In this document: positions 3,330 to 40,093 of the stretch, piece by piece
How positions within the stretch are numbered: position 1 is the stretch's first letter
Layout: each line of letters opens with the position of its first letter
NCBI GenBank assembly: GCA_965233585.1
Contig: CBDDTI010000382.1
Location: 1 to 40,093 of the forward strand
Direction: 5' to 3'
DNA from: a bacterium
GTDB lineage: Bacteria > SAR324 > NAC60-12
Length of the DNA: 40,093 bases
Translations under genes and position numbers: made by a program
Notes under the pieces: generated by a model
Told to the model about the DNA's origin: nothing
The model's input: the letters and a program-made list of their open reading frames with translations, nothing else
Database searches by the model: none

Positions 3330-4677
3330 TGAACCCTGAGGGAGGAAAGAGACAGCGCGAATAGTTTGGTTCAAAAACTTTCGCTTCATCTTACCACATA
3401 GGCTAATTATCTAATTCATTCCTGTCATCTAAATGATTCAAGTCCATTGAGTGTTCAATAGAGTGAGAGAAAGATCCAGCGTGCCAGTACAAATCTTAGC
3501 AGTACTGACATGGGGCATGGCAGAAAATTAAAGATAAAAAAGTTTTTTGGTACAGTAGATGATGCTGAGAAAAATTCGGACGAAAATATTTTTTTCACTT
3601 CAATGAATTTTGATGTTGTCGCCACCATTTCTCTGTTAGTAAAAAGTTAACACTGAAAACTTCAACATGTTTTCTCCATATTACTGTCTTTTTTTATTAA
3701 ATATGATATTTTTTCTCATTGGGGAAAAAAGTGTTAATAACTTAACAAAGAATTTAAAATTTTTATGGAATTTTTACAGTGACTCCTCTAGAGAGAAGAG
3801 AAGGAAGAAGTGTTTTCTTCTTACAAGAAAGAAGTTTTTGAATTTTCCCACTTTCCAGAGCATGCCTTCACTGGTGGTGCAATCTATGCGTCAAAGGCTG
3901 AACTATTTTCTGACACGCCCCTTAGTGGGGAAATATTCATCAGTTGACCAAGCCAGACCAGTGTCCGGACTGTTAAGTTTTGTACTGGCACAAATGTTTT
4001 GTTATACAATTGTTTAACAAAACAAAATTAAATAATACAAAAGTGTTGCGATACAATTGTTTTATTAATCTTCACTATCCAAAATCTACAGTGTTAAGTA
4101 TAACTCAGAATTCTGAAAAATATGTTGTAACTTCTCCATGATGAAAAATTTTGTGTGAGCTAAGCACATAGCAGAGCAAAAAATATATTAGTTGGAACAA
4201 GTATTTTAGCAAATTAGAGTCAAAACTGAAAAAAATGAATATAGTATTGGAAAGATAATAATTTTACCCTACTTTTGCCCTAGTTTTATTGAAACATTAC
4301 TGAGGGGTTTTACAGAAAATCAAAAATTGGGTTATCAAGCAGTGCATTGGGTTGACAGGTTTTCTCATCATTTTAGATGGGCAAGATGAGGTAGGGCTGA
4401 AAAAATTTTTGGTGTACCCTGGTGGGATGGTGAGCAAGGGGCATAATTGTATCCTCTAATTTTACATGCCCGCAATTTTGGGATTCAATTACAGAATAGG
4501 AGAAAACGGATGACAGAAGCTTGTTTTTAGATGTTTTCGGCCCGAATTCATCTAAATTCATCTAAATGCGTTCTAAATTCATCTAAATTCATCTAGATGC
4601 GTTCTCGTTGCAAGCAAAACGTCAACTGATTCAATCTAAAATCATCTAAATGCACACCGATTTCTGGTGCGTGCACC

Positions 4678-4982
4678 AAAAGTTTGGTGCGTGCATTGCT
4701 GTGTCTAATGCTGGCATGAGAAATTTGGTGCGTGCACCAAAAGTTTGGTGCCGGCATTGCTCCGTCTAATGCCGGCATGAGAAATTTGGTGCGTGCATGA
4801 AAAGTTTGGTGCCTGCATTGCTTCGTCTAATGCTGGCATGAAAAGTTTGACGCGTGCACGAAAAATCTGGTGCCTGCATTGCTTTGTCTAATGCTGGCAT
4901 GAGAAGTTTGGTGCGTGCATCAAAAGTTTGGTGCCTGCATTGCTCTGTCTAATGCAGGCATGAAAAAGTTGGTGCACGCACT
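4678..4982 (+). repeat. Five 61-bp tandem units inside the left TIR
   Basis: Units start at 4678, 4739, 4800, 4861 and 4922; consensus aaaagtttggtgcctgcattgctNNgtctaatgctggcatgaraartttggtgcgtgcaNN. Confidence 0.92.
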
Positions 4983-5028
4983 AAAAATTTCATGCACGCA
5001 TCAAAATTTTACTTGTCTGCATTACTTT

Positions 5029-5088
5029 TTCTGGTGCCGGGATCTCAATTTTGACGCTGGCATGAAATTTTAGATCCCGGCACCAGAA
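5029..5088. other. Perfect 17-bp inverted repeat (hairpin) near the inner end of the left TIR
   Basis: ttctggtgccgggatct (5029-5045) and agatcccggcaccagaa (5072-5088); mirrored at 24616-24675. Confidence 0.85.
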
Positions 5089-5242
5089 TGTCAGCGGTCC
5101 ATAGACGAAGAAACGTGCTCAATAACTTGGGGGTTTTTCTTTTCTTTTTTTGCAATAAACTTCAACGGAATGCTGTTACTAAATAGTTAAGGAAATTGCA
5201 AAAATATGGAAATTTTATTTTTATCTTTTCATCTTCTTTTTC

Positions 5243-6757
5243 TTAAAACTTTCTAACAATCAATTTAGGAAATGGCTTCTTGTAAAACGGGTTTTTTTTT
5301 TTACTATTGCGTCTTAATTTTGAAAGTGGTTCATTTTCATCGTAATTTTTATAAGGCTTTTTGTAAAATGGGTTTTTTCGTAATTTAAAAAGCTGTATTT
5401 CATCATCAGTCAACTTTTTTAACTCTTTCTTTTCTTTCTTCGTTTTTACACCTCGATGTCTTAATTTAGAAAGTGGCTCGTTTTCATCAAAAGTCGACTC
5501 TTTTGACTTTCTCTTTGTCGGTTTTGCATTTATTTTTTTATTTTTTACATTGCGTCTTAATTTCGAAAGTGGTTCATTTTCATCGAAATTTTCACAAGGC
5601 TTCTTGTAAAACGGGTTTTTTCGTAATTTAAAAAGCTTCCCATCCTGTTTAAGTATTTCATCAACAGTCAACTTTTTTAATTCTTTCTTTTCTTTCTTCG
5701 TATTGTATTTTTTATAAGGCTTCATGTAAAACGGGTTTTTTCGTAATTTAAAAACCTTTTCATCTTGTTTAGGTATTTCATCAACAGTTAATTTTCTTGA
5801 TTCTTTCTTTTCTTTCTTCGTTTTTACACCTTGACGTCTTAATTTAGAAAGTGGCTCGTTTTCATCAAAAGTTGACTTTTTTACCTTTTTCTTTGTTGGT
5901 TTTGCATTTAATTTTTTATTTTTTACATTGCGTCTTAATTTCGAAAGTGGTTCATTTTCATCGTAATTTTTAGTTAAACAATCACGTTTTCGCCGCTTTG
6001 ATGGAATGCCGCTTTCATCCTCGTCACTAATGTTTTTTCTTTTGCCGCGAAAAGATGGCAAAGGTTCCTTGGTTTTGTTTGAATTGCGCTCAATTTTGGC
6101 CTTTTCCAATGTTTCTCTCGCTAATCTTTCTTCTTCCAAACTAGCGCGGTAGTTGTGTTTATTACGCAAATGTTGCATAAGAAAATATACCCTTGAGTAG
6201 GTTGCATAGTTACAAAACGGGCATCTAAGTTTTGGCGGAACGATGTTTTTCTTTTTCAAGTCGATGTTTGATGGTTCGCAGTGTTGAGGCTGAGGCTCGT
6301 TATTAAGTAAATTTTCCGATGCAATTTCCTGATGCGAAAGCGTTATTTCCTTTTGATGTCTTACGTTTTCCGCTTCCGTTGGATTTACAGGTGGAAAGAT
6401 GAAATTAGGACCATCGGGCTGGCTTCCGCTTGATGGAGGGACAGAAGTAAAACCATTTTGCGAGAGTTCTTCGCTGTTTCGAGCAGGCAAGGTGTTTATT
6501 TCCATCTGTGCTGGCTGCTCAATGTTATTGAACGTATTTACCAAAGTTGAAACCGTTTTCTTCAAATCTTCCGGTTGTGTCTTGTAGGATTTCTGCTGCT
6601 TAAATTGAATAGCGTCTTCTATATAATTTGCACCTTTATTCAATTGATCTAATTGATTAAGCTTGTCATCTTCGCTAATGACCTCCCTCAAGGCAAGGTA
6701 AATTCGTTTCGGCACCAAAAACATGGTGGATACGTCCTCTTCCTGTTTCTTTTTCAT
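5243..6757 (-). CDS. Element protein (504 aa) with a C2H2 zinc finger and a Lys-rich repetitive C-terminus
   Basis: CPFC-x12-HLRNKH finger; DENEPLSKLR x5, FKLRKNPFYxKP x3, TKKEKKE x3; ATGA overlap with the upstream ORF. Confidence 0.8.
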   Translation of the reverse strand: MKKKQEEDVSTMFLVPKRIYLALREVISEDDKLNQLDQLNKGANYIEDAIQFKQQKSYKTQPEDLKKTVSTLVNTFNNIEQPAQMEINTLPARNSEELSQNGFTSVPPSSGSQPDGPNFIFPPVNPTEAENVRHQKEITLSHQEIASENLLNNEPQPQHCEPSNIDLKKKNIVPPKLRCPFCNYATYSRVYFLMQHLRNKHNYRASLEEERLARETLEKAKIERNSNKTKEPLPSFRGKRKNISDEDESGIPSKRRKRDCLTKNYDENEPLSKLRRNVKNKKLNAKPTKKKVKKSTFDENEPLSKLRRQGVKTKKEKKESRKLTVDEIPKQDEKVFKLRKNPFYMKPYKKYNTKKEKKELKKLTVDEILKQDGKLFKLRKNPFYKKPCENFDENEPLSKLRRNVKNKKINAKPTKRKSKESTFDENEPLSKLRHRGVKTKKEKKELKKLTDDEIQLFKLRKNPFYKKPYKNYDENEPLSKLRRNSKKKNPFYKKPFPKLIVRKF

Positions 6758-7137: not shown

Positions 7138-7824
7138 TTACGTGCGTACGTTGTACGCCCTTGTAGGCTGTTCGTCCGGAAAAATATGACTTCTTAATCG
7201 AACCAAATTATTCTGTTGCTGATGAAAATCCAGCAGTAAATAGCCATAAGGTCTTTCACCGGTTGCTGCCGCATATGCATCGTTTAGCCGATGCACGTTA
7301 CCCGGATACACCTGTTTAGCCAGGTGCGAGACGGCACTACGGTCTCTGGGATTGTTGAATAAAATCATGTACTGCGAGTTGATGCTGAGCATTCTGAGTT
7401 CGCTTTTGGCGCTAAACATGTTCTGACACAAAAAAACTGTCAAACAATTATAATGATGCGTTAAAACCGTGAAAAAGTGCTTTAGCACCGTTCCTACTTC
7501 ATCAAGAAAATCGTCAAATACTACAATTTTCGGAAGAGCTCTAGGGAACGTTTCCAGTATATCTTTCATCTCTTCAACCGATTCTGGCATGGATGAAAAT
7601 TTGCAGAACCTTTTCTCACGCGCGTCATCGTTCATCCCTCGCTCCATATCAGCATAGGCTGGTTGAAATTCTTTGTAAAATAGAATCATACATTCCGGAA
7701 CGGGCGAGCACATTACGGCCCTATCTTCAACCAGTTTTTTTAGCCATGACGTTTTTCCGCAAGAAGTGGGACCTACCGCGAGTAAGTTAGATGGAAGCTT
7801 AAAGCGCAAATCAAATCCGTCCAT
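7138..7824 (-). CDS. Genome-packaging ATPase (A32/FtsK-HerA-like)
   Basis: Walker A GPTSCGKT, Walker B IVVFDD, HHYNCLTVFLCQN, PYGYLLLD. Likely start MDGFDLRF at 7824 (ORF open from 7872). Confidence 0.93.
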   Translation of the reverse strand: MDGFDLRFKLPSNLLAVGPTSCGKTSWLKKLVEDRAVMCSPVPECMILFYKEFQPAYADMERGMNDDAREKRFCKFSSMPESVEEMKDILETFPRALPKIVVFDDFLDEVGTVLKHFFTVLTHHYNCLTVFLCQNMFSAKSELRMLSINSQYMILFNNPRDRSAVSHLAKQVYPGNVHRLNDAYAAATGERPYGYLLLDFHQQQNNLVRLRSHIFPDEQPTRAYNVRT

Positions 7825-7887
7825 GTTTTTAATTTTTCTTGACACAAAAAAGAGACAAGATATTACCATCAATTTTTATCAATACGT

Positions 7888-10800
7888 TTATTTGATTTCC
7901 TTACATTCATGTTTACAACATTTTTTTACATGACAACTTCCTAAGGCCAAAGTGCACTTTCCGCAAGAAAGCACATAACGTTTGGTGTCCATGGCAGATA
8001 GAGCAATTTTTCGTTGGTGGGTTGTTGACATTCTGTGATTCTTTGATTTAATATTAACAAGAGGCTTATATACCAATGTTGATTCGTTTAAACATTTTTT
8101 GTAATCCTCAAAGGTCAAGTGATTTTTAATACTAGTTTTTTTAAGGCCCTTACAAATTTTCTTTACGCTGGCTCCTCGGGTTTTCAAATCCTTGACCGTC
8201 ATGCTGTAACATTTTGGCCTTAAGCCGATAAATTCAGTAATTGCGGCCTTTCCTTTTAGCTCGTCTTTGAAGTAAAACAAATGGTTGGCTCTGCTATCGT
8301 CAAACAACTCGTGATCTTTATCGTATTTTGAGAAGTCGAACATGTGTTCCATTCTTTTTAACTTTTTAACTAAATTTTGACATTTTACTTGAAACAGAAA
8401 CGAGTCTGTGTCCGAAAAGCACAACTTTAGATTCTCCGTTCCAAAATAACGTCTAAATTTGTCGTACGATCGATACATGTAGAGTTTGGATAGTTCCAAA
8501 ATCGCAAACCCCACCGCCAACGGTTTCTTCATTTCAATAACGGCCGGTTTTTTCATGACAGCCACAAGGTTTTCGTTTATGACTTTCAAATTCGAAACAT
8601 GCTGACCCATGCAAGTCTTTCTCAGCTTCTTTTCATTGTGGCACAACACGATTTCGATGTAGTTTCGCGCGTTCTCTGAAAAAAAATTAAACATTTTATT
8701 GTGAAAAAAGGGAGCCATTACTTTATTTTACCTATAAATTTGCCAAATGTGGAATTGGCAAACAACTTGAAGAGACGTAATTCAAAATCAGTTTTCGCCT
8801 CCGACCTTAATTTTGTAATTTTTGTGATAAAGTTTTTTAAAAAGTCTTTTTGCTCAAACTTGACCGCTCGTCTGATTTTTGTAAGCTTCAGCCCTCGCCT
8901 CAAATAATACTTTAGATTATCTAACAAGACGACATAATTACGTCGCGGGTAGAATGTGGCAAGAAGCTTTCGCGAACTGTAACGTTTGTTTTTGTAATCA
9001 GCCGGACAGTGCTTCTTCAAAAGTTGTTTGTTAAACGGTGACAGATCATCAAAGTTTATTGTGTCAGTGTAAGGAGCCAAAGGAAATTGATCATCTCTCT
9101 GCAAAATAAATAAAAAAATTTTTCTAGCAGTTGGTGTTTAGCAAAAACAAATTTTTTTACCTTATGATATTTTTTTGGATAGTGCAAATCCACTTCAAAA
9201 GCATAGCCAATCCTGCTTTGCGAAGGCAAATTCAAAATGTCCTTGTCCGTCCATGTTTTTATCACCTTTTTTGGCACCCACTTAAAATTACCCACCGGCA
9301 GCATGCGTGTTTCCATGCTGCCGTAAAGATTGTTAGCTGAAAATGTATCGTAATTTTAATCAATCTTTTTTTCTTTGACGTTTAATAAAAAATATTACCA
9401 TCTACATATAGTAAATGCTCGCCGCTCGCTTTAGGATCGGCCTGACCCGTCGCTTGTCTGGTAGCTATAAAACTCTGCCCTCCTCTAATGCCGCGTGTAA
9501 AAAACTGTTCCATTGCCGGATCGTGAAACAAGTCCAATGAGCCCGGTGGTTTCGACATAAAATCGGCACTAATCTCTTCTTCGTCTTTTCTTTCTTCATT
9601 TTGAAACATTTTCAGCATGATGTCAAATGACAAGCCAGGTATACCTAAATAGTAGATGGGATCCAACTCAAAGTGCTTCATCACCATTTCTCGATACTTT
9701 ACAAAAATCTCAGCCAGCAAAATCACGTCCAGTCCGCAATATAACTTCATGTAGTCGTCCATATTTTTACAATTAAAAAACTTGTACACTTCATAGCCGT
9801 GCTTATGATCTTCGGTTGAGATGTGGGCTTCGCTCAATCTCGAGTAGAAAGCGTCTTTTGGTGGAAATTGACTGTTTTTAATTGACTCATATGATGAAAA
9901 GTATTCATACGGATATACTCCTTTTCTTTTCAATAATTTTAAACCTTTCGCCTTTTGTCGCGTCCACAGCCTCCTGTAAGGCTCAAATTGTTTGAGAATC
10001 GGAAAGGTAAACGTCTCATCCTTGCATAAATCGGTCATGAGCGCATCAAGACTGGATGGCACGTGCTCTAGAGAATCCCTAATTTGAAATTTTCCAATAG
10101 TGATTGTCCTAAACTTTTCTTGGTTACTCGCCATCAGATTAGCCTCTTTGTCCAATTTTTCTACTAGTAGATTTATGTCATATCTTAAAATTAAAAAAAT
10201 TAAAAATGACTTTCCCTCAAGTCAAGGATTATAAATATTAAAAAAGTCTGTACTTACCCTTTGGCGTTGTGAAAGTATATAGGTGTTCTAAATGGGCCCT
10301 GTCGTTGCAGATTGCAAATAGAATGCGCCGCTTGAACAATGTTTCCGGTGACGTGATCATGATCAACCACTTTTTTATATAATCGCGAGCCTGAATCAAA
10401 TTCTTTTTTGCAAATATGACATAGCGTGGCGGCGCGGTACTCTTCCCAATCATGTTTGCTCGCTATAATTTGAGATGTGTTCTTGAACCGTTGCTTTCGC
10501 GCTTCCACTAATTCTTCGAAATAATCCAGCTTTGATAGAAAATTTTCCACAGCGTCTTTTCCACTGTACGTTTCTTGATAAAATACTTCGTTTTCCGAAT
10601 CGACAAAACAAATTGAATAGCCGCAAGCTCGATGTTTACTTAGCTCAGTGCATCCCGACACTTGACATTCGCATGTCACCCACGCTTTTCCGCATGTTTT
10701 ACATGTTTTTGCTTCTTGCTCTGACTTTTCCATAAAACACTCAAAATCAGCAAATCCCACTACAGGTGCTTTAAAAGCATTTCTTTGCTTATCGAAATTC

Positions 10801-11453
10801 AAGACACTGCCCTTTTCCGGATAAATCACCGCTTGTTTATCCATTTGACAGATTTTTTCGTGTAATTTTTGTTTCTTGTGCGAACGAAAATCTCTTAAAC
10901 AGCTGTCACAAAAATAAAACTGACTTCTATGCCGTCTTCCTTTGGTCATAGCAGATTTTCGGTTGTTCAAAAAGCCATTTAAATTAGCAATAGTGAAAAA
11001 ATGGTGCTGATGCTCAAGGTCTTTTACGTTGGAAATGCCATTTACGTCAATGCTGTCTTTATTGGCCGATGAAATTCGACAATCACTTTTAATCATTAGC
11101 AAATTTAGCGTATTTTTGTTCTTATTTTTCTCGCCAGATCTATTGGAGAAAACGTCTAAAACACTCAGTTGATGTTCACCTTCAAAAAGAACTCTTATAC
11201 GTAACGGTAGGTGCTTGTTAATTCGAACAAACTTACTAATCTGGCTAAACTGCAGGGGAAAGGTTAAACCTTGCAAGTTAAATTTACTTTCATACTCCTT
11301 GGGAATTTTTTCGCATCGTCTGATGTTTGCCGTTTCCGGCCAAAGATGTCGTATGACACAATATAGAAAGTTCTTTTCATCGTATTTTCTGTTCCATAAA
11401 ACACTTCGACACTTTAATAAATACTCGGGCACGTTTACAGAGTCGCTGTTCAT
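7888..11453 (-). CDS. pPolB: Protein-primed family B DNA polymerase, 5 exons, 1103 aa after splicing
   Basis: Exons 11453-10258, 10183-9399, 9336-9161, 9098-8732, 8675-7888 total 3312 nt in frame. Motifs: ExoI FADFEC, HNH/EndoVII-like DHDHVTG..AHSICNL, ExoII FHNAKGYD, KGVYPYEY, ExoIII YCGLDV, motif A YVDANNLYG, motif B KLFANSTFGK, motif C SDTDS, PKCY. Confidence 0.95.
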
Positions 11454-15427: not shown

Positions 15428-15913
15428 CTAATAAAGCTTGACTTGCAAACAATTAACTAAATGTTTGACGCGTTTTTCATTTTCGCGTAAATTAACGGGA
15501 TTAAAAAAAGTGCAAAAGTGCCGCGGATTCGCGTTTGCGTATGCATTGACAAACATGCAGAATGCGGCAGCATACCACCCGCAAAACAATGAATCGAAAG
15601 CTTGAATCGATCGGTCCAAGACATGTCTTATTCTGCCGCAATTTTCCCATTTTTTCAAAAAATGGATGAGGTGGTGATTATAGGCGGGCACGGGTAGTGC
15701 ATAGCTGTCGAAATAATACAAATAGTTTTGCTTATTAATAAAAAAGGCGATGAAATGACTGCCGGGATGGCTTGAAACCGAAAGATTGACGATGGCGCAA
15801 CAGCTAGTGTTCCACAAGTTTGAGGGTATCGTGTCGACTGCAAAGGTGCCGATGAAATTCTTGCAAAGTGGGGATAAAAACCGATCTAGAAATACGTTGC
15901 TCAAACCGGTCAT
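15428..15913 (-). CDS. Adenain-like cysteine maturation protease
   Basis: Catalytic H (GSHFIAF), D (YFDSY), Q and C (IQAFDSLFCGWY). Confidence 0.93.
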   Translation of the reverse strand: MTGLSNVFLDRFLSPLCKNFIGTFAVDTIPSNLWNTSCCAIVNLSVSSHPGSHFIAFFINKQNYLYYFDSYALPVPAYNHHLIHFLKKWENCGRIRHVLDRSIQAFDSLFCGWYAAAFCMFVNAYANANPRHFCTFFNPVNLRENEKRVKHLVNCLQVKLY

Positions 15914-17247
15914 TATCGCTCTTCGGCCCTAACAACTTGGCCGTTCTCCTCTATTTTAATTCCGGAATTAAAAATGCTGTAGGCTAGCAGGTAGATGGGG
16001 TGAGGCTTGGCTGTTTTAAAGCCTAATTCCAAGTCCAACTTGCCTTTTTCGTCGGGGTGAATGTGAAAACTGTTGCAGCGATCGGGGGTCAAATCGGCAG
16101 TTAGAAAACATCTTCCTCTCTTAAAAACCGCGGGCGAAATGTCGCAAGAACTATTTGAAATGCCGAAACCCGTGCTGTCGTACATGTGTCTGTACAGGTC
16201 CATGTAGTTATCATCATCAAAATCCGGCTGAAAAGCTTTTGGGAAGACGCATTGTCCGTTTTTAATAAGATTGAAATAATTAAGATCAAAGTGTTGAAAG
16301 TCGAACGGGTTGAATTTGCTATCGTGCGTCAAGGCTTGGTTGTGAATTAGGGTGAAAATAACTTGTTTGGGCAGTATTTGTGAGGCAATATTGGTAACGG
16401 TGTACGATGTGACGCCGGCTGGAATCACAAAAACCTTCAACTGACTCAGCTTAAAGGGTATATAGCAGGGCTGTTGAGACATTTTCATCCTAAAATGCTT
16501 TCTCTGCTGCTCGACCGGCAAAACTTTTCTCATTTTCAACTTTAAATCCTTTAAAACGATTTTAAAAGATTTGTCATCTTCGGCGTGAAGAATACCAAAT
16601 GTCGGACTGTTTCTAATAAGCTTAATCTTGATGTCGACATTCGGTGGCATATACTTATCCGTATACATAATATCCGCCCCCAATCGAGAGCAGAAATAAA
16701 CTTTTTTGCCGTGAAGTATAAGATTTCGACGGTGTATTAAACGCTGATTTATACCGGGCTCGCAAGCTCCAATATCGTTTTCTTTTTCTTCAAAATAACC
16801 TTCGGCTCTTAGCTGACTCTGTTTGGCCTCTCTATCAAACGACAACTCGGTCTGGATAAAGTTTTTGAAAGGGTAGGAATTTGCCGTGCTCAAGTCGCAG
16901 ACTTGAGTACCGTTAATGTAGATTTCAACCGCGCTAAATAGATTGCTCGCGAAATTATTGGCCAAAAAGACTCGATCGTCGGGTCCGACATTTTCATCCT
17001 TTGCTGTCTTGACAACGAAATGCCCTATTAATCTAGTCTGATCCAGAATGATGGAACACTCTTCGTCTCGCGGGATGATGAATTCGATCGGTCCGGTGTT
17101 TGAAACGCTGGAAACGCTGTTGTAGACCACATCATTGCCTTTTTCAAGGCTTATATCGACCCCGAGCGGCGCGTGCAGATCAAGAGCTTGTTCTGTCAAA
17201 TCGTCCTGCTCGAACCCTAGACCTCCGATGCCGCCCTTTTCAGTCAT
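15913..17247 (-). CDS. Major capsid protein (double jelly-roll), paralog B, 444 aa
   Basis: Polinton MCP-type motifs PIEFxI, LFSAVEIYING, SYPFKNFI, KYMPPNVDIKIKLIR, LPKQVIF, NPFDFQHFDL, DLTPD. Confidence 0.88.
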   Translation of the reverse strand: MTEKGGIGGLGFEQDDLTEQALDLHAPLGVDISLEKGNDVVYNSVSSVSNTGPIEFIIPRDEECSIILDQTRLIGHFVVKTAKDENVGPDDRVFLANNFASNLFSAVEIYINGTQVCDLSTANSYPFKNFIQTELSFDREAKQSQLRAEGYFEEKENDIGACEPGINQRLIHRRNLILHGKKVYFCSRLGADIMYTDKYMPPNVDIKIKLIRNSPTFGILHAEDDKSFKIVLKDLKLKMRKVLPVEQQRKHFRMKMSQQPCYIPFKLSQLKVFVIPAGVTSYTVTNIASQILPKQVIFTLIHNQALTHDSKFNPFDFQHFDLNYFNLIKNGQCVFPKAFQPDFDDDNYMDLYRHMYDSTGFGISNSSCDISPAVFKRGRCFLTADLTPDRCNSFHIHPDEKGKLDLELGFKTAKPHPIYLLAYSIFNSGIKIEENGQVVRAEER

Positions 17248-17316
17248 TGTCGAAAATGCATGCTAGTCTGTAGTTTTCTGTTCTTCTTAAAAAGAGGGAG
17301 TCGGTGGTGTGCAATT

Positions 17317-18657
17317 TTAATATTTTATTTTGGTAACCTGAAGGTTGCTGTCGATGGAAATGGCAGCATTATAAATAGCGTAAGAAATCAGGGTTAGGGG
17401 GGTTCTGGTGGGGGTGTTAAAAGTCAAGTCTAGTTCTAAATTTCCGGGCACTCCGACGTGATTGTGAAAGGATAGGCATTTATCCGGAGTCAAGTCGAAC
17501 GCGAGAAACATCTGACCCCCTGTAAAAGCTTGGGGTGAAATACAATTTCTGCCGCCGACGTTGCTTTGAAAATGGTCGTACAATTCCATATAATCGCCTG
17601 TAAGTATCTTGCATTCTATAGGTCTAGGCATGAGAAGTCTTCCATTGTTTTTTAAAATGACGGATCCTAAATCGGCGTGTTTAAATTTAAAGGGAAATTG
17701 ATCGCTCGGTCCCTTGGCAAAAAGGTCGCTTCGAAGCATGCAGAAAATAATTTGTTGCGGCAACATCTCGCTATTGTTGATGTGATTTGCAGAGAAACTA
17801 AGGGAACCAGACGGGATCAGATAATGCTTCATCTGCGTGTCTTTAAAAGGCAGAAAAAATGGTCGACCTTTTAGCAGTTCGGCGTTTAGCCTGTTTCGCA
17901 CACGCTCGCACGGTAACACTTTTCTCATGCGAAGTTTTAATTCCTTTAAACGAATGCGATAGACTTTGTTCGGATTATCTTGAAGCAGCCCGAAACACGG
18001 GTTGAACCTGCGTAATACAACAGTGATTTCCACATTCGGAGGTAAATATTTGTCGGTGTAAAAAATATCTGCGGGCAAAGTTGAGCTAAAATAAACTTTT
18101 TTGTCGTTTATTATTTTCGCGCGATTCTCCGCGATGCATTGGCACATTTTACCGGTCGTGGTAATATTGTCAAAGCATTTGTCGTGGTGCGTTCGGCAAA
18201 AGCCTTCGGACCGTCCCACATTTGTTAATACATTATTGTTATAGGACAGGAGAAAGTCAATGTGGTGTTTGTACGAATAAGAAAGAGGGGCACTCAAATC
18301 ACATATTTGAGTTCCGTTAAGGTGGACTTCAATTTGCGAGAATAATGCGGCGCAATAATGGTTAGTAATTGTTGGCGTGTCAGTGTCTGTTACACCCTCG
18401 CCGCTGTCGGTCTTTACCACAAAGTAACCCTCTAGCCTTGTCTGATTTAAAACAAAAGCGCATTCGGGGTCGGAAGGAATTGAAAACGTAACATCTTCTA
18501 AATCTTCGACGGGAGTCACGCTATTATATAGCACAGTACGACCTGATATTAAATCCGTGTCTTCGAGGGGGGTCGCATGCGCATTCAAACTATCACCCTG
18601 CAATTCATTGAAATCCACATTTAAACCGCCGACACCGCCATTAATCAACGATGACAT
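17317..18657 (-). CDS. Major capsid protein (double jelly-roll), paralog A, 446 aa
   Basis: Colinear with paralog B: QTRLEGYFVVKT, LFSQIEVHLNGTQICDLS, YTDKYLPPNV, MRKVLP, LPQQIIF, FDLTPDKCLSFHNH. Confidence 0.88.
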   Translation of the reverse strand: MSSLINGGVGGLNVDFNELQGDSLNAHATPLEDTDLISGRTVLYNSVTPVEDLEDVTFSIPSDPECAFVLNQTRLEGYFVVKTDSGEGVTDTDTPTITNHYCAALFSQIEVHLNGTQICDLSAPLSYSYKHHIDFLLSYNNNVLTNVGRSEGFCRTHHDKCFDNITTTGKMCQCIAENRAKIINDKKVYFSSTLPADIFYTDKYLPPNVEITVVLRRFNPCFGLLQDNPNKVYRIRLKELKLRMRKVLPCERVRNRLNAELLKGRPFFLPFKDTQMKHYLIPSGSLSFSANHINNSEMLPQQIIFCMLRSDLFAKGPSDQFPFKFKHADLGSVILKNNGRLLMPRPIECKILTGDYMELYDHFQSNVGGRNCISPQAFTGGQMFLAFDLTPDKCLSFHNHVGVPGNLELDLTFNTPTRTPLTLISYAIYNAAISIDSNLQVTKIKY

Positions 18658-19211
18658 TTTTAGACAACACGGAGCACGTCACTGTCACAAATATAAAGCT
18701 TAGCTGCACAATTATTCTTACGGATGAGGGGCCGTTATCCTTAAATAAAGATGTGACACAAAAAGTTTTTAGTAATTTTACGGTAGTGAGGAAACAATAC
18801 GTCTACACCATTTTCAAGACCCGCGGAAACAACAAATCATATCATGTCAATATTACCAAAGTGCCGTCGCGAGCGGATATAAAAATATCGTTAAGTCTGC
18901 TGACGGACATTATCAGCAATCGTTTCTTTGTGCAAACATGGGAAATAAACAATTTAACTTGTTCCTTTCGTGCGGGCTTTGAGATACCGCTGCCGGACGT
19001 TTTTGATAAACTTCGAAAGGAGAGCTACGTGAAAAAAGTACGCTTCAATCCCGAACGTTTCCCGGGCATGTTTGTGACTTTTGAAGCCAACACGGTTTTA
19101 ATATTTTCCACAGGCAAGATGGTAATCATCGGGGCCAAGTCCGAAGATGCGGTCAAACATAGTTTGGACTTTATTATAGATTTTTTGAAACAATATAAAA
19201 GCGATCGATAG
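18651..19211 (+). CDS. TBP: TATA-binding-protein-like factor (186 aa), intronless
   Basis: Clear C-terminal TBP repeat INNLTCSF..FEIPL..FNPERFPGMFVTF..TVLIFSTGKMVIIGAKSEDAV; divergent N-terminal repeat VTNIKLSC..NFTVVR..YTIF..VNITK. Confidence 0.9.
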   Translation: MTFLDNTEHVTVTNIKLSCTIILTDEGPLSLNKDVTQKVFSNFTVVRKQYVYTIFKTRGNNKSYHVNITKVPSRADIKISLSLLTDIISNRFFVQTWEINNLTCSFRAGFEIPLPDVFDKLRKESYVKKVRFNPERFPGMFVTFEANTVLIFSTGKMVIIGAKSEDAVKHSLDFIIDFLKQYKSDR

Positions 19212-19229
19212 TTGATTTGCGTTTCAGTT
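19194..19229 (+). promoter_or_regulatory. TATA plus initiator core promoter for the TFIIB-like gene
   Basis: TATAAAAG at 19194 and TCAGTT at 19224-19229 (A 32 nt downstream of the first T); ATG at 19255. Confidence 0.65.
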
Positions 19230-19254
19230 TTGCAGCGCGTGCGGAGAAATAAAC

Positions 19255-19977
19255 ATGCCTCGCTTTCATAATTTCAACAGGACTTGTTCTCATTACAATA
19301 TTGTGGATGATTTTTCAAACGGGTGTGAAGTATGTACAGATTGCGGGCTCGTGATGCATGATCGGCTATATGCCTCGTATGACTATCGGCTCGAATCGAT
19401 TAAAACGGAGAAAATGAGCGAGGATGTGACTTGCGACAAAAACAATTTTACTGATGAGACAATGCAAAGGGTATGCTATAAGTGCAATATCGAATGCGCG
19501 GATTTAAAACGCGTCATCGCCAAAAAATGGGACGCTAGCGGGAAAAGAGGGAAAAGAGGTGTTTGTTTAGAAAGTTTAGCGGTAATGTGCATCTACTCCG
19601 CGCTTATAGAGTCGGGGGTGCCGCGACCGATGAAAGATTTATGTGCCATAACCGGCGTCAAGCAGGACAAAGTGTGGCAATATCTTAAAAACGACGACTC
19701 TTTCTACAGCCCAAATTTAATGTGCGAATATTTTCTTCACTCTTTAAATCTAAGCTACAAGGAGTTGAAGGAAATTAGAGAGAAAGTAAAGCAACACGAA
19801 AAAAAGTTTGTTTTTTCGCCAAAAACACTAATCGCGGCATGCGCGCACGTCTTTTTAAGAGAACAACGGAGTAGGGTTGATCAGGAAAAGCCGAAAAGCT
19901 TATCACGTTTAGCCGAGCAATTAGGCGTTAGTCCGATGGCCTTAAGCAGGTGCGTCAAAAAAATTGAAAATTGTTAA
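19255..19977 (+). CDS. TFIIB: TFIIB-like transcription initiation factor (240 aa), intronless
   Basis: Zn ribbon CSH..IVDDFSNGCEVCTDCGLV; cyclin repeat 1 ESLAVMCIYSAL..GVPRPMKDLCAITGV; repeat 2 SPKTLIAACAHV..SLSRLAEQLGVSPMALSRCVKKI. Confidence 0.88.
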   Translation: MPRFHNFNRTCSHYNIVDDFSNGCEVCTDCGLVMHDRLYASYDYRLESIKTEKMSEDVTCDKNNFTDETMQRVCYKCNIECADLKRVIAKKWDASGKRGKRGVCLESLAVMCIYSALIESGVPRPMKDLCAITGVKQDKVWQYLKNDDSFYSPNLMCEYFLHSLNLSYKELKEIREKVKQHEKKFVFSPKTLIAACAHVFLREQRSRVDQEKPKSLSRLAEQLGVSPMALSRCVKKIENC

Positions 19978-19980
19978 AGT

Positions 19981-20412
19981 ATGCGATACCACCGCGGTCC
20001 GTCTGTGCAAGCTGGGGCGGGATTAGGTTCAATTTTTAGCAGTCTTTTCCGGTCGTTGGTTCCGGTGGCGAAGGGCGCCGCAAAGACAATCGGTAAAATT
20101 GCGAGAAGCGAGGGTGTCAGATCCGCGGGACGATATTTGAAAAAAGAGGCGGGACGAGCGGCCATTGACACCGCACTGGAAGCCTTGGACGGCAAAGCAG
20201 TTGGAGCCGCTGCGAAAAAGAGATTAAAATCCGCGACTAGAAACATCTTACTGGCTGGTAAGGCGAGTAGGCCTGCACAGGCGTCCAAGAGACCGGTCAA
20301 GAGAAAAAATAGCACGCATGCGGTAGGAAGCGGTAAGAGAAGAAAAACAAAACAAAAACCGCTGTTTTATGTTGAGGACGACAACGACGACGACGACGAG
20401 GATGATTACTAA
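19981..20412 (+). CDS. Basic core/DNA-condensing-type virion protein (143 aa)
   Basis: QAGAGLGSIFSSLFRSLVP N-terminal motif typical of Polinton core proteins; Ala/Lys/Arg-rich body; acidic tail. Confidence 0.75.
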   Translation: MRYHRGPSVQAGAGLGSIFSSLFRSLVPVAKGAAKTIGKIARSEGVRSAGRYLKKEAGRAAIDTALEALDGKAVGAAAKKRLKSATRNILLAGKASRPAQASKRPVKRKNSTHAVGSGKRRKTKQKPLFYVEDDNDDDDEDDY

Positions 20413-21481
20413 ACGCGAATTTTTAAAAGCTTACACTTCGCCCGGCTCGCCTTTTGCTTTTTCATCGCCGAACCGCGTTTTTAATCATTTTAACGGGACC
20501 ATACCCATAAATAAAATAAAGAAATGGCTGCAGGCGTCAGACACCTATACTCTGCACCGACAACCTAGGGCTCCAAAACCTAGGAACCCGACCTATGTTT
20601 ATTACAAAAGATATCAATTCCAAATAGACTTGGTTGAAATTGGAAAAATGGCAAGCGCGAATGACAATTATCGTTACTTGCTGACAGCGATCGACATTTT
20701 TTCGAGATATGCCTTTGTTGAACCCATAAAAAACAAGACAGCTTTGGTTTTTTTACAAGGATTCAAAACCATTGTCAATAAGGCTGGCCAGCCGCCTCGA
20801 AAAATTCTAGCTGATAGAGGGTTAGAGATCAAAAATAAATTTTTTAAAGACTACTGTCGACGTAATGGCATTACTCTTTTACACAGCGACAACTTTGTGC
20901 ACGCGCCGTTTGTGGAAAGATTTAACAGATCTCTAAAAAGTCTAATGTTTAAATATATGACATCTAGGGGTACGGATCGATTTATCCACGTGCTTCAATC
21001 TTTAGTAAAGACGTATAACTCGCGCGTACATAGAATGATCGGTATGAGTCCGGCTGAAGCGGAAAAAGCAAAAAACGCGCCCAAAGTCCGAATGAAACAA
21101 GAAGAGGCTTATGCGAAAATAAAGAGGCGACCGCCTAAATTTAAGAAAGGCCAGACGGTCAGAATAAGTAACTACAGAGCTCAATTTGACAGAGGTTACA
21201 ATAAGCAATTTACTGAAGAAATTTACAAGATCAAACGGGTGTTTACGCGATTACCCATACCTACATACGAACTGGAAACTCTGGACGGTGACGAGACGGT
21301 AGAGGGAAATTTTTATGCTAATGAGCTGACTCTGGCCAAGCCGCCGGAATTATTTCACATTGAAAAAATTGTTAAAAGGAAGAAAGATAAAAGAACCGGG
21401 CAGAAGTTGGTGTTGGTCAAGTGGAAAGGCTATAAAAACCTTAGCTGGATTGCGGAAGATAACGTTATTAATCAGGCGTAA
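20402..21481 (+). CDS. Retroviral-like (rve) integrase with C-terminal chromodomain
   Basis: YTLHR, D-D-E triad (FQIDL, ILADRG, VERFNR), YNSRVHRMIGMSP, GNFYANEL, chromo-like FHIEKIV..LVKWKGY. First ATG at 20402. Confidence 0.95.
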   Translation: MITKREFLKAYTSPGSPFAFSSPNRVFNHFNGTIPINKIKKWLQASDTYTLHRQPRAPKPRNPTYVYYKRYQFQIDLVEIGKMASANDNYRYLLTAIDIFSRYAFVEPIKNKTALVFLQGFKTIVNKAGQPPRKILADRGLEIKNKFFKDYCRRNGITLLHSDNFVHAPFVERFNRSLKSLMFKYMTSRGTDRFIHVLQSLVKTYNSRVHRMIGMSPAEAEKAKNAPKVRMKQEEAYAKIKRRPPKFKKGQTVRISNYRAQFDRGYNKQFTEEIYKIKRVFTRLPIPTYELETLDGDETVEGNFYANELTLAKPPELFHIEKIVKRKKDKRTGQKLVLVKWKGYKNLSWIAEDNVINQA

Positions 21482-21486
21482 CAAGT

Positions 21487-23079
21487 ATGAAAGGAGGACA
21501 TCTTATATATTGCATTTCAAACGCCAGCACTGATTGTTACGTAAACACGCTAACGCGTTTTAACAATTTTTTACCGAAAAATTTAGAATTAAACAAAAGA
21601 AGAGATTGGGAAGTTGGGGTTGTAGCTTTTGGTCTGCATTTAAACGTGAAACAAGATTTTGTTTTTGACGTGGTGCAGGTTAAATCCAACATTGTGTCTA
21701 CAAGCTCAAACGAGAATTCTCACATCTTATGTGTGGCCGACTTGCCTTCAAGCAAAAAACGGAAATATTTCTACCATACTTTAAGCAACATACGATATTA
21801 TCCTATTCAAAACACTTCAATAAAATCAGTGGGCATTGAGTTTTTAGACGCGTCCGACAAACTTCTGAAACTAAAATCGGGTCAGCCGAGTCTAGTTTTA
21901 CTTCATTTGCGAAAAACAAAACGAGCGATGTCATATTTGACAAAGCACATTCGCGTCGACTCAAAAATGGGCGACAACATAAAACCTGCGCAGAAAAACA
22001 ACAATTTCGAGGTACATTTGAGCCATCCCATTTATTTGAACGAAGGAGCTAAAATAGCCTTAGCCGACATCTCCTTTCCAAATCGTGTTAACAGCGTTCC
22101 GTCAAGCGTTTTTGATAAGAAAATTAAAGTAAGTACAGACCCGTTCAAGCAAGAAATCGAGGTCAAACTTGATCAGCAGAAAACAATTGCTTATTTATTA
22201 AATTGCTTAAACGACGGAAGAGACAGCGTAGTACGTAATTTTGTTGAATTTGGGCAAACGGAGAAAACAAAAGAATCGGTCGATATCTTTTTTCGAGTAA
22301 TTTACACCGGACCGTCGACGTACGATGCCGAATTTAAATCACCCGAGGTAAAAGTGCTGATACCGCCCGAATTTAAAAACATTTTGGGAATCAAAGAAGA
22401 ATATATTGTTATGGGACCGGAGAAAAAAGAATTTATATCGCAACAGCCAATGCAAAACCCTGATCCAACAGAAACATTTCCACTGGTGAAAATCAGGGTA
22501 ATGATTGAAACAATGCAATTTTGCTTTTGCATTGAGAAGAGGTTTATCAAAACAACGGATGAATTAATCGAGGCCATGTCTAATGGTATGAGCAAAGATT
22601 TACAAAGTCTCATTCAAATTTCCGCGCATAAAGACCGTTTTAAAGTAAAACGGGTCGGCAATCAATTCAATCGCTCCTTGGTAGTAAGGATAAGAGTGCC
22701 GCATGAAATAAGATTATTGCTAGGAATAAGTCAAGATGATGACATTGTTTTGGCGGATGAAAGTAAACAATTTATAAGTGACGAACGTCTAGATCCGCAC
22801 TATCTATATCCGGGAGTGATGATCTGCTATGCCAATTTCGTCAATCACTCGGTAATTGGAGACGAGTTTTACCCTGTATTAAAAGTTATACCAATTAATA
22901 GAGCCGAGGAACAAGACAATTATGTGACGACGCATTTTGACAATTTGGAATACATAAAGTGTAATACAAGTCGACTGGATTTGTTGCATTTTCAGTTAAA
23001 AAGACTTGACGGAGAATTGATTAATTTTGAAACAAATGAAAAAATCATGATGAATCTAGCCATACAAAACCCTAAATAA
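21487..23079 (+). CDS. Minor capsid protein (penton), 530 aa, apparently two tandem single-jelly-roll domains
   Basis: Domain 1: SNAS..NTLTRFNNFLP..L..WEVGV ... SNIV..YYPI..IKSVGIEFLD..LHLRK. Domain 2 from Met148: DS..NNFEVHLSHPIYL..IALADISFP ... NFVNHSVIGD..LKVIP..LEYIKC..LHFQLKRLDG. Confidence 0.8.
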   Translation: MKGGHLIYCISNASTDCYVNTLTRFNNFLPKNLELNKRRDWEVGVVAFGLHLNVKQDFVFDVVQVKSNIVSTSSNENSHILCVADLPSSKKRKYFYHTLSNIRYYPIQNTSIKSVGIEFLDASDKLLKLKSGQPSLVLLHLRKTKRAMSYLTKHIRVDSKMGDNIKPAQKNNNFEVHLSHPIYLNEGAKIALADISFPNRVNSVPSSVFDKKIKVSTDPFKQEIEVKLDQQKTIAYLLNCLNDGRDSVVRNFVEFGQTEKTKESVDIFFRVIYTGPSTYDAEFKSPEVKVLIPPEFKNILGIKEEYIVMGPEKKEFISQQPMQNPDPTETFPLVKIRVMIETMQFCFCIEKRFIKTTDELIEAMSNGMSKDLQSLIQISAHKDRFKVKRVGNQFNRSLVVRIRVPHEIRLLLGISQDDDIVLADESKQFISDERLDPHYLYPGVMICYANFVNHSVIGDEFYPVLKVIPINRAEEQDNYVTTHFDNLEYIKCNTSRLDLLHFQLKRLDGELINFETNEKIMMNLAIQNPK

Positions 23080-24076: not shown

Positions 24077-24599
24077 CCTTATTACAAAGGAACTTTCTAG
24101 AAAACCCTAGAAAAAATTGCGGACAGGTTGAAAAATGTATCTTGTCAAAAATTAAAAAATTCTTTTACAAAATACCTTCAATCCTAATTGTTTTTAAATG
24201 ATAGGAATGTTCTAGAAATGGGAAGAATTTATAAAAAGAACAAAAAAGGAAACATCTGCTTTGCGCAAAAATATTATGTAGAAAACACCAGAAAAAATCG
24301 CGGTCAGTTCAAAGGTGATTTTTGGAAAAAATTAAAATTGCATGGTAAAAAATACCAAGGAACCATACAACTTTTTCGAGAAATCAAATTTATATAAAAC
24401 CTTTTTGTGCTAAAAACAAAAAACACAATTGATTAAATTATTGATAAAAATCACATTAAATTATTGATAAAAATCGCTCGTTTACTGATACCATTACAGC
24501 AAGAAAATTTACACAGAATGAAGAAGAACATTGTGACATTGCAACACCAGTTATGGTAAAAAAGAAAAAAGCTCTGCTTCTTTTCTCCAATTTACTCAA

Positions 24600-25140
24600 C
24601 TATGGACCACTGACATTCTGGTGCCGGGATCTAAAATTTCACGCCAGCATCAAAATTGAGATCCCGGCACCAGAAAAAGTAATGCAGACAAGTAAAATTT
24701 TGATGCGTGCATGAAATTTTTAGTGCGTGCACCAACTTTTTCATGCCTGCATTAGACAGAGCAATGCAGGCACCAAACTTTTCATGCACGCACCAAACTT
24801 TTCATGCCAGCATTAGACGGAGCAATGCAGGCACCAAACTTTTCATGCACGCACCAAACTTTTCATGCCAGCATTAGACGAAGCAATGCAGGCACCAAAC
24901 TTTTCGTGCACGCACCAAATTTTTCATGCCAGCATTAGACACAGCCATGCAGGCACCAAACTTTTGGTGCACGCACCAGAAATCGGTGTGCATTTAGATG
25001 CATTTAGATTGATTCAGTTGACGTTTTGCTTGCAACGAGAACGCATCTAGATGAATTTAGATGAATTTAGAACGCATTTAGATGAATTTAGATGAATTCG
25101 GGCCGAAAACATCTAAAAACAAGCTTCTGTCATCCGTTTT
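24600..25140 (-). repeat. Right terminal inverted repeat (541 bp; four 61-bp units at 24722-24965)
   Basis: Reverse complement of 4503-5104, one 61-bp unit shorter. Confidence 0.95.
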
Positions 25141-28737
<3,597 letters not shown>

Positions 28738-35848: not shown

Positions 35849-38781
<2,933 letters not shown>

Positions 38782-40093
38782 AAGGTTTTTGAATCTGAAA
38801 TATCTTTTAAAATGATATGAAAAATGAACTCCCTTTTAAAAGGAGACATTGATGAAGAAAGAGAAATCGTTCTACGCTCAATTACCTGTTCCTCTTCCTG
38901 TTCAACCTTTTTGGCATCCTTGATCATGGCTTGCCTGATGGGTTCGTGAACTTTCGGCTCATAAGGTGAAAACGTCAGGTAATGGGGATCATCAGTCGAT
39001 GATGGGGAAAATATTCTGTCCCTCCATTCATTGACACACTCCCTAACCCTCCTCTTGAACAATTCACCTCCACCTTTGCTCTTTTCATTGTACCTTTGAA
39101 ATATAAAAGACCTCAAAATTGATATTTTGTTACCACAACTAGAAATTTTCTTCACAGAGTACTATTATATACATAGAGGAACACTAGAGCCTTGTGCATG
39201 GTGGGGTAACCAACAGAGACATTAGCTAGCCAGGTGCATGGGACCGAGAGATGAATATCACAAATTCTTGCATAAATTAGATATCTATCCTTCTTTTATC
39301 TTGCTGTGTTGCATCTATATCACCTGAATAGGTCTGATATGCTTAATGCAAGAAAGATCCAATAATTTGTGACATTCATCTCTCGGTCATTTATAAAATA
39401 CCAGAGAAATGCTTTTTTCCCGTTCATCTATGAGTATAATATATCTATGATTTTCTTTGCTCACAAGTCAGCTGCTTCCAGATTAACTGGTTCTTCTATA
39501 TCAATTTTATAAAAGCTTCTTCGAAGGTATAACAAAATCTGCCAAATATGATTGACATTCCGCCTCCATTTCTTCAATGGCCCCCTTCTCACATCATATT
39601 CATGAGGATGTTCAGGATTAATTAAAGGATGGAAGACTTCATGCTCAAAGAAGACTCTCTGCAAAGAAAAATTGCATTGTTAATTTTTTGGGGGAATCGC
39701 ATGTTAAATTAACGCCGTGTTATTCATTTAAATGATCAATGTGATTTTCAAGAACTCTTTCAAAAAACTTTTAGACTACAATAGCTCTCGGGGCAGATTT
39801 ATGAAGTAGTATTGATCGACTACGTATGTGGCACCATTATCGGCGTACAAGCGGGGAAGGGGGGGTCCACCCCCACCACCTCCCCGCCACCCTCCAAAAA
39901 TTTACAGTACCCCCATGCTTCAAAAATTCAACATCATAAGCCTTTTCAAAAAACCCCGCAAGGGTTTTCCTGACAGAAACCCTAAAATTTTTTTCGGCCT
40001 CTGGATGAATTTATTTTTTTTACTTTCATCATAAGTTGTCCCCTAAAGATCACCAAAAAATGGTCACTTTTTTATGTGAAAGCTTTTCAGCAT

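Follow-up and report, generated by a model that had tools for sequence, protein, structure and literature searches.

A TBP and TFIIB gene pair carried by 20-kb Polintons, a candidate initiation module for virion genes

The 40,093-nt contig CBDDTI010000382.1 of assembly GCA_965233585.1 (hereafter the window) carries a 20.6-kb Polinton that encodes, side by side on the + strand, a viral TATA-binding protein (TBP; 18651..19211, 186 aa) and a viral TFIIB (19255..19977, 240 aa). The element belongs to a Polinton/Maverick (adintovirus-like) clade that is widespread and has the fixed cassette protease < capsid <> TBP > TFIIB > core > integrase > putative penton. Sequence comparisons indicate that the pair is real, functional, old and widespread. 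It probably serves as a minimal viral initiation module that directs RNA polymerase II (Pol II) of the host to late (virion) genes.

Pfam recognizes TBP in the second half of the 186-aa open reading frame (ORF) with an E value of 9.8e-17. An AlphaFold2 model (pLDDT 91) places the fold over residues 11-185, and the first 44 PDB chains returned for it by Foldseek are all TBPs (best E 1.3e-9, TM 0.56-0.71). As the model aligns with whole TBPs, the diverged first half represents the other lobe of the saddle. Cellular TBPs are ~20% identical to the viral protein. The preliminary description of this DNA had named both transcription factors, and structural searches with Foldseek and VIA-align upheld the two folds.

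Comparison of 173 viral with 10 cellular-type TBPs indicates that the DNA face of the viral protein carries clade-wide changes. The four intercalating Phe and two Asn positions that characterize the two-lobed saddle of the family are retained (F137 and F152 in 173/173, N14 in 166/173, N101 in 169/173), as is the C-lobe Pro (P138, 168/173). Elsewhere, N67 is present in 173/173 viral proteins where 10/10 cellular ones have Val, T/I/S103 (162/173) also stands in place of a Val found in 10/10, and F141 (146/173) in place of Ile/Val (10/10). K16 (168/173) differs from the cellular-type residue, and V/I/L160 replaces a residue nearly fixed in the 10 cellular-type TBPs. We take the changed positions to correspond to yeast V122, V71, V161 and T215, which contact DNA. 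T148 is not distinctive, being found in 5/10 cellular TBPs as well, and the window protein has Leu at 150. F141 aligns with I194F of the yeast altered-specificity protein TBPm3, which acts at TATA position 2 (PMC1636458).

The viral TFIIB has a zinc ribbon (CxH..CxxC), a short linker, two cyclin folds and a C-terminal helix-turn-helix, and thus shows the domain architecture of the TFIIB family. The window protein matches Pfam Zn_Ribbon_TF at E 1.3e-4, under the curated cut-off, while relatives clear the Pfam TFIIB cut-offs (L013, E 1.6e-9; L075, E 5.1e-11) and TFIIB is the best PDB sequence match by profile (E 4.8e-9). The model (pLDDT 71) contains two five-helix repeats. Foldseek places TFIIB/TFB chains at ranks 1-20 and the first Brf chain at rank 21, and VIA-align superposes the model on yeast TFIIB at Z 11.8 (rmsd 7.9, 179 residues aligned), with single-fold cyclins near at Z 10.0. 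A plain cyclin is ruled out by the ribbon and by TFIIB ranking first. VLTF3 was also rejected as an identity: Pox_VLTF3 gave no match up to E 0.1 in the window protein or five cassette relatives, and A2L_zn_ribbon matched only at E 0.057, in one cassette protein. The ribbon ligands and the helix-turn-helix are conserved in 27 viral relatives. A conserved B-reader/B-linker, another family trait, is missing: the linker has ~22 residues, against 67 in human TFIIB, and varies among the 27 relatives.

TBP and TFIIB are a textbook binding pair. Co-folding of the two viral proteins scored 0.45 (best control 0.01), with runs sharing at least 42% of contacts and a partner pLDDT of at least 67; the mark applied was met by 116/157 solved and 2/215 mismatched pairs, 18/157 and both mismatches meeting it at a score of 0.60 or below. 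Co-folding thus lends weak support to the predicted binding. Two variations on the TFIIB gene were seen. In the metagenome contig L051 (905-1927) it continues in frame into the core gene to give a 340-aa ORF, which may be an assembly error, and another Polinton-like family (L077:1741-2616, L079:5903-6649; C389, C273) has a TFIIB-ribbon-like ORF (profile E ~8e-7; hhalign probability 56%) with no detectable TBP.

The pair is an old, clade-wide module under purifying selection. As the preliminary description had it, the two ORFs are adjacent, co-oriented and intronless and lie between the capsid and core/integrase genes, inside the terminal inverted repeats; they are uninterrupted on the + strand and 43 nt apart, and the TBP start codon overlaps that of capsid paralog 1 head to head by 7 nt. 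The assembly holds 39 TBP ORFs of at least 170 aa (8 clusters at 90%, identity down to 35%) and 39 TFIIB ORFs of at least 225 aa (9 clusters, identity down to 30%). TFIIB lies 3' of TBP in 39/39 copies, where the gap measures 39-106 nt except for 425 nt in a single broken copy, and a capsid gene faces TBP head to head in 39/39. In 24 copies the TBP and capsid starts are spaced by -7 to +8 nt, and bigger overlaps are due to upstream in-frame Met codons. Of 298 candidate stretches from a metagenome scan, 68 were confirmed, with identities of 28-37%. TFIIB was found in 61 of these 68 loci, which include several near-duplicates, and the capsid gene in 59; the seven loci without TFIIB stop at or just past TBP. 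The IMG/VR contig L075 has the identical cassette order. In most metagenome relatives (L013, L018, L011 and others) the TFIIB gene begins within the 3' end of TBP, in contrast to the gap in the assembly, and TFIIB expression may therefore be wired differently there.

Pairwise ratios of nonsynonymous to synonymous substitution (dN/dS; custom Nei-Gojobori script, 7 pairs) were 0.06-0.28 for TBP (7/7 pairs significant, p<2e-5) and 0.14-0.30 for TFIIB (significant in 6/7), values like those that the protease and capsid-1 genes show. A tree of 34 Polinton-type TBPs (14 with known context and 20 context-free representatives) and 21 eukaryotic, archaeal and other viral TBPs separates the two sets by a 99/93 branch; branches are long, and the sampling includes no animal TRF and no recognisable giant-virus TBP. 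Among the 150 best matches in a profile search of the full library, 143 are viral-type in our judgement, from sequences without genomic context, and 114 of these bear the N-lobe signature of the clade. The likeness seen to the Nucleocytoviricota factors is structural, at 20% identity. No cellular host TBP appeared among the 30 best tblastn matches listed for the 12-Mb assembly, and a PHROGs search gave nothing useful. A TBP domain also occurs within an 891-aa protein of a 309-kb viral contig (L092:3001-3330); a shrimp nimavirus of about that size presumably encodes such a protein. The preliminary description had set beforehand that a recent, neutral host retrocopy limited to one copy would undo its proposal. 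Both genes are intronless, as recent retrocopies would be, but the ~20% identity to cellular TBPs, dN/dS well below 1, the metagenome-wide synteny and the branch that sets Polinton-type TBPs apart refute that origin and leave it next to no probability.

The regions upstream of non-redundant genes (less than 75% identical in the last 80 nt) were compared, the genes coming from the metagenome loci and 8 in-genome contigs. Among these regions occurs the motif CNNTATBTAAR, which differs from TATA at position 4. It lies 12-138 nt upstream of capsid (22/33), putative penton (10/21) and ATPase (4/19) genes, once in 13 before the zinc-finger gene, and never before TBP (0/38) or TFIIB (0/27; jointly 0/65). 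In the antisense orientation it is absent from all five of the capsid, putative penton, ATPase, TBP and TFIIB upstream sets, and the background is 56/3416 windows. The preliminary description had proposed late structural promoters, and this part gained a motif with specificity for three gene classes, capsid, putative penton and ATPase; redirection of the polymerase to it is predicted.

Its distance to the start is mostly 35-52 nt for penton and ATPase genes and 83-112 nt for capsid genes; the box of a capsid gene thereby falls within the TBP gene, on the opposite strand. In the window, the candidate late promoter box (C..TATTTAAG; 18740..18750, - strand) is 90 nt upstream of the capsid-1 start. 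The box occupies one codon position in 30/38 TBP ORFs, compared with a mean of 7.1 and a maximum of 16 in 2000 synonymous resamplings, and its Leu column is TTA in 31/31 versus 84/202 across ten other Leu columns. This excess and the fixation of TTA point to a constraint at the DNA level that the protein does not explain. Among 11 TBPs less than 50% mutually identical, 9 carry the box. The codon beyond it varies in amino acid (Val, Asp, Glu, Ala), whereas the C at -3 stays, and that C is modestly enriched at penton, ATPase, core and 117-aa gene sites (16/27 vs 59/171, p 0.018). L075, fetched after the motif had been defined, has the box 113 nt before its capsid gene, and TBP-less elements of this assembly lack it at their presumed capsid genes (0/8). 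Weaker variants (TTTTTAAG), outside the strict motif, occur in the window at 17286..17296 (- strand, 46 nt upstream of capsid-2) and at 19849..19859 (+ strand, in the TFIIB 3' end and at -129 relative to the core gene); before the core gene of C98 the strict core TATTTAAG stands at -128, and in C30 at -93.

A host-type signal, TATA followed 17-28 nt later by [TAG]CAGT, has the complementary distribution. It precedes TBP (11/38), TFIIB (3/27), polymerase ORFs (4/18) and core (1/29), and is absent before capsid (0/33), penton (0/21), ATPase (0/19), protease and integrase genes (background 26/2870 windows). In the window a promoter-like TATAAAA + TCAGT site for TFIIB (19194..19228, + strand) has its TATA in the last TBP codons and may drive that gene. 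TCAGT is the arthropod initiator, and the host of the element is probably an invertebrate. The family B DNA polymerase gene contains short GT-AG introns on the - strand (10257-10184, 9398-9337 and 9160-9099; 74, 62 and 62 nt, with a fourth donor at 8731), which together with the TATA+CAGT sites argues for nuclear Pol II transcription and splicing. Where the preliminary description left the choice between Pol II and Pol III open, the introns and the closer likeness to TFIIB than to Brf favour Pol II. No RNA polymerase matched among the 18 element ORFs scanned with Pfam, in agreement with the earlier statement that this ~20-kb element has none, and besides polymerase B no ORF longer than 700 aa exists in the 68 metagenome loci.

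Starting from the folds, the purifying selection, the synteny and the two motif classes with their gene-class specificity, we infer the following course of expression. Early on, host TFIID/TBP would fire the TATA+CAGT promoters to give viral TBP, TFIIB and DNA polymerase. Viral TBP, with its altered DNA face, would then bind the altered box TAT[CGT]TAA[AG], and the helix-turn-helix of viral TFIIB would read the C three bases upstream of it, much as cellular TFIIB reads its TFIIB recognition element (BRE). The TFIIB ribbon would dock host Pol II, leading to transcription of capsid, penton and ATPase genes. Because the capsid box is antisense within the TBP gene, late initiation there should damp TBP expression, a possible built-in early-to-late switch. 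We further propose, tentatively and with rather less confidence than in the module itself, that a large, undescribed clade of 20-kb Polintons has the smallest known viral late-gene programme. In it, a re-specified TBP would act with a TFIIB devoid of its reader to bring host Pol II to a TATT-like box that has its own BRE-like base upstream, an arrangement independent in origin from herpesviruses, and a capsid promoter antisense in the TBP gene would let the activator switch its own gene off.

Several observations weigh against a late initiation module. The strict motif is missing before protease (0/25), integrase (0/25) and 117-aa genes (0/17) and rare before core (2/29), so these would need read-through transcripts or variant boxes. 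In the window it occurs at capsid-1 only, with none at penton, ATPase or protease, and families C112/C212/C224 have TATTAAAAG before capsid instead. The motif was defined after structural-gene upstream regions had been viewed, and the penton and ATPase counts are accordingly not fully held out. TBP-less controls are few (~4 families) and distant; IMG/VR was scanned with three queries, namely the TBP alignment, the capsid of the window and one TBP-less capsid, and gave no matches, which keeps that set small. Co-occurrence of pair and motif could reflect shared ancestry, the link between protein and motif being indirect. For TBP in the window itself no promoter could be recognised, TBPm3 acts on TATA position 2 whereas the viral box deviates at position 4 (PMC1636458), and the B-reader/B-linker roles in start-site selection and DNA opening appear to be lost or supplied otherwise.

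Some of these points would suit other functions. The pair could be a general booster or replacement that keeps viral TATA-like promoters active while host TFIID/TFIIB is limiting or shut off, the capsid box being read by host TBP or another factor. The late-type box departs from TATAWAWR mainly at one position, and the retained Phe positions and C-lobe Pro would also serve such a factor; yet the motif classes divide cleanly by gene class, and plain replacement has no need of fixed clade-wide changes in the DNA face. We regard this as unlikely, and as still less likely that the proteins are decoys or repressors, with a TFIIB that has no working B-reader occupying the Pol II dock or host TBP and so shutting off host or early viral transcription, and a TBP that represses on DNA. 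Although the largely missing reader and linker would fit, as would interference from the head-to-head overlap with the capsid gene, conservation of the ribbon, both cyclin folds and the helix-turn-helix speaks against it, as do the cognate TBP that always accompanies TFIIB and the existence of a structural-gene motif, which requires an activator.

The pair might also work with a polymerase other than Pol II, either Pol III or that of a giant virus acting as helper, or steer the integrase to targets as TFIIIB does for Ty3. Brf chains match the TFIIB model too (Foldseek E 1e-4), the nearest Atlas clusters for the viral TBP are largely viral, and the integrase gene lies two genes downstream. TFIIB nevertheless ranks above Brf, the protein has no Brf-type C-terminal extension, and the introns and TATA+CAGT sites indicate nuclear Pol II, so that these roles seem very improbable. 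A late module acting through host Pol II is the reading we prefer.

A virus-encoded TBP and TFIIB without an RNA polymerase are also found in algal giant viruses; in chloroviruses, prasinoviruses and CpV-BQ1, redirection of host Pol II has been proposed (PMC12085832). These viruses encode at least ~200 genes, among them TFIIS, a capping enzyme and VLTF3, whereas the Polinton is a 20-kb, integrating element with the pair only, its genes adjacent and beside the capsid gene. What is new is thus the presence and form of the pair in Polintons, the principle being already known; the earlier suggestion of an undescribed system stands to that extent. In the late pre-initiation complex of beta- and gammaherpesviruses, a viral TBP-like protein (ORF24 of KSHV, the Kaposi's sarcoma-associated herpesvirus) likewise acts at an altered TATA box before virion genes, with host Pol II there, as we infer here. 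In KSHV, the late promoters to which the complex with the viral TBP binds have TATTWAA ~30 bp before the start (PMC6541308), a consensus that the window box TATTTAAG fits. The herpesviral complex has six viral proteins and engages Pol II through an ORF24 N-terminal domain that binds the polymerase C-terminal domain (PMC7498053). Unlike it, the Polinton TBP is a bare 186-aa saddle, whose fold (residues 11-185) leaves no room for such a domain, and TFIIB is the likely bridge; the likeness is known at the level of the TBP fold. Poxvirus VITF-3 is also a dedicated viral TBP/TFIIB pair for one expression stage, but forms a ring with an expanded TBP and works with a cytoplasmic viral RNA polymerase, whereas the Polinton TBP has the plain two-lobed fold and no viral polymerase (PMC12917281).

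In gene content the element resembles adintoviruses, Polintons and MELD viruses, with polymerase B, rve integrase, A32 ATPase, adenain, double-jelly-roll (DJR) capsid and terminal inverted repeats (PMC8502044). One MELD virus, which may or may not belong to this clade, is given a bare 'TBP' label where the adintovirus paper and the corresponding preprint explain their figures, and the text and one supplement of that paper make no mention of TFIIB (PMC8502044). In the accessible part of another preprint, TFIIB is mentioned for giant viruses only (10.1101/2022.05.25.493380), and the Polinton-like virus PgVV-14T borrows the early promoter of its helper instead (10.1101/2022.07.28.501842). Beyond the TBP label, a literature search for a Polinton TBP-TFIIB pair or late promoter found none, with figures, tables and most subscription papers outside its reach.

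The element is bounded by inverted repeats at 4503..5113 (with internal 61-nt repeats) and 24591..25140, whose arms are 93-94% complementary; length (4503-25140) and long repeats agree with the 15-25 kb of Polintons/Mavericks. AG termini and a 6-bp target duplication are expected of such elements. Sister copies often end in AGTA, whereas the window copy ends (4503, 25140) are ragged without AGTA and no target duplication was seen; TGTTGT precedes several sister-copy ends, and several others are ragged. The right end abuts one copy of a duplicated gene (25140-28737 and 36480-40093, spacing 11.35 kb), presumably for a carboxylesterase; the left flank is unlike the other copy. A WD40 ORF in the flanking DNA had five matches, distant and either unnamed or generic.

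Family B DNA polymerase (7888..11453, - strand, in pieces split by the introns; DNA_pol_B_2 E 2.6e-7) and a retroviral-type integrase with chromodomain (20369..21481, +; rve E 1.8e-10, Chromo 2.8e-5) are the family's hallmark genes. Sister copies share the polymerase layout, and families C112/C212 (family labels denote contigs of the same assembly, C382 being the window's) have a gap of 2-3.5 kb in this gene. Contigs of four runs from one study span the stretch, and among those shown none has an intron-skipping joint; they are uninformative on expression. DJR capsid, ATPase and protease are identified through relatives and profiles, the window proteins alone having weak or no Pfam match. Capsid paralogs 1 (17317..18657, -, 446 aa) and 2 (15913..17247, -, 444 aa) are 39% identical; the family profile matches Pfam DJR protein at E 1.5e-17, one relative matches DJR directly (E 2.8e-4), and the capsid profile has no sequence match in the PDB. 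Tandem paralogs (15913-18657) occur in C382/C58/C98/C593/C93; C112/C212/C224 and the metagenome loci have just one such gene. Of the two paralogs, the first has the higher rate of evolution (paralog 1 versus paralog 2, dN/dS 0.16-0.35 vs 0.05-0.19 for the same pairs).

The adenain-like protease (15428..15913, -) matches Peptidase_C5 at E 0.077 in the window and 4.3e-5 in L013, and the A32-like packaging ATPase (7138..7869, -) is supported by Pox_A32 in L013 (E 3.7e-9). A basic core-like protein (19981..20412, +) is assigned a putative role from its conserved position, and the putative penton or minor capsid protein (21487..23079, +, 530 aa) from position and a weak profile link, a Pfam scan of this ORF giving no match. 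A lysine-rich 504-aa ORF with a zinc finger (5243-6757, -) contains repeated DENEPLSKLRR units whose number differs among copies (281-727 aa).

A stage-specific pair with a predicted box bears on gene timing in Polintons and on whether they are autonomous viruses or transposons, and would argue for a real early/late infection cycle. The hypothesis is tractable, comprising two small proteins and an 11-base motif. TBP, TFIIB and promoter would together form an orthogonal set of natural origin, with which one could ask whether Pol II initiates when its TFIIB lacks most of the B-reader. It may also bear on the origin of transcription factors in small DJR viruses and giant viruses.

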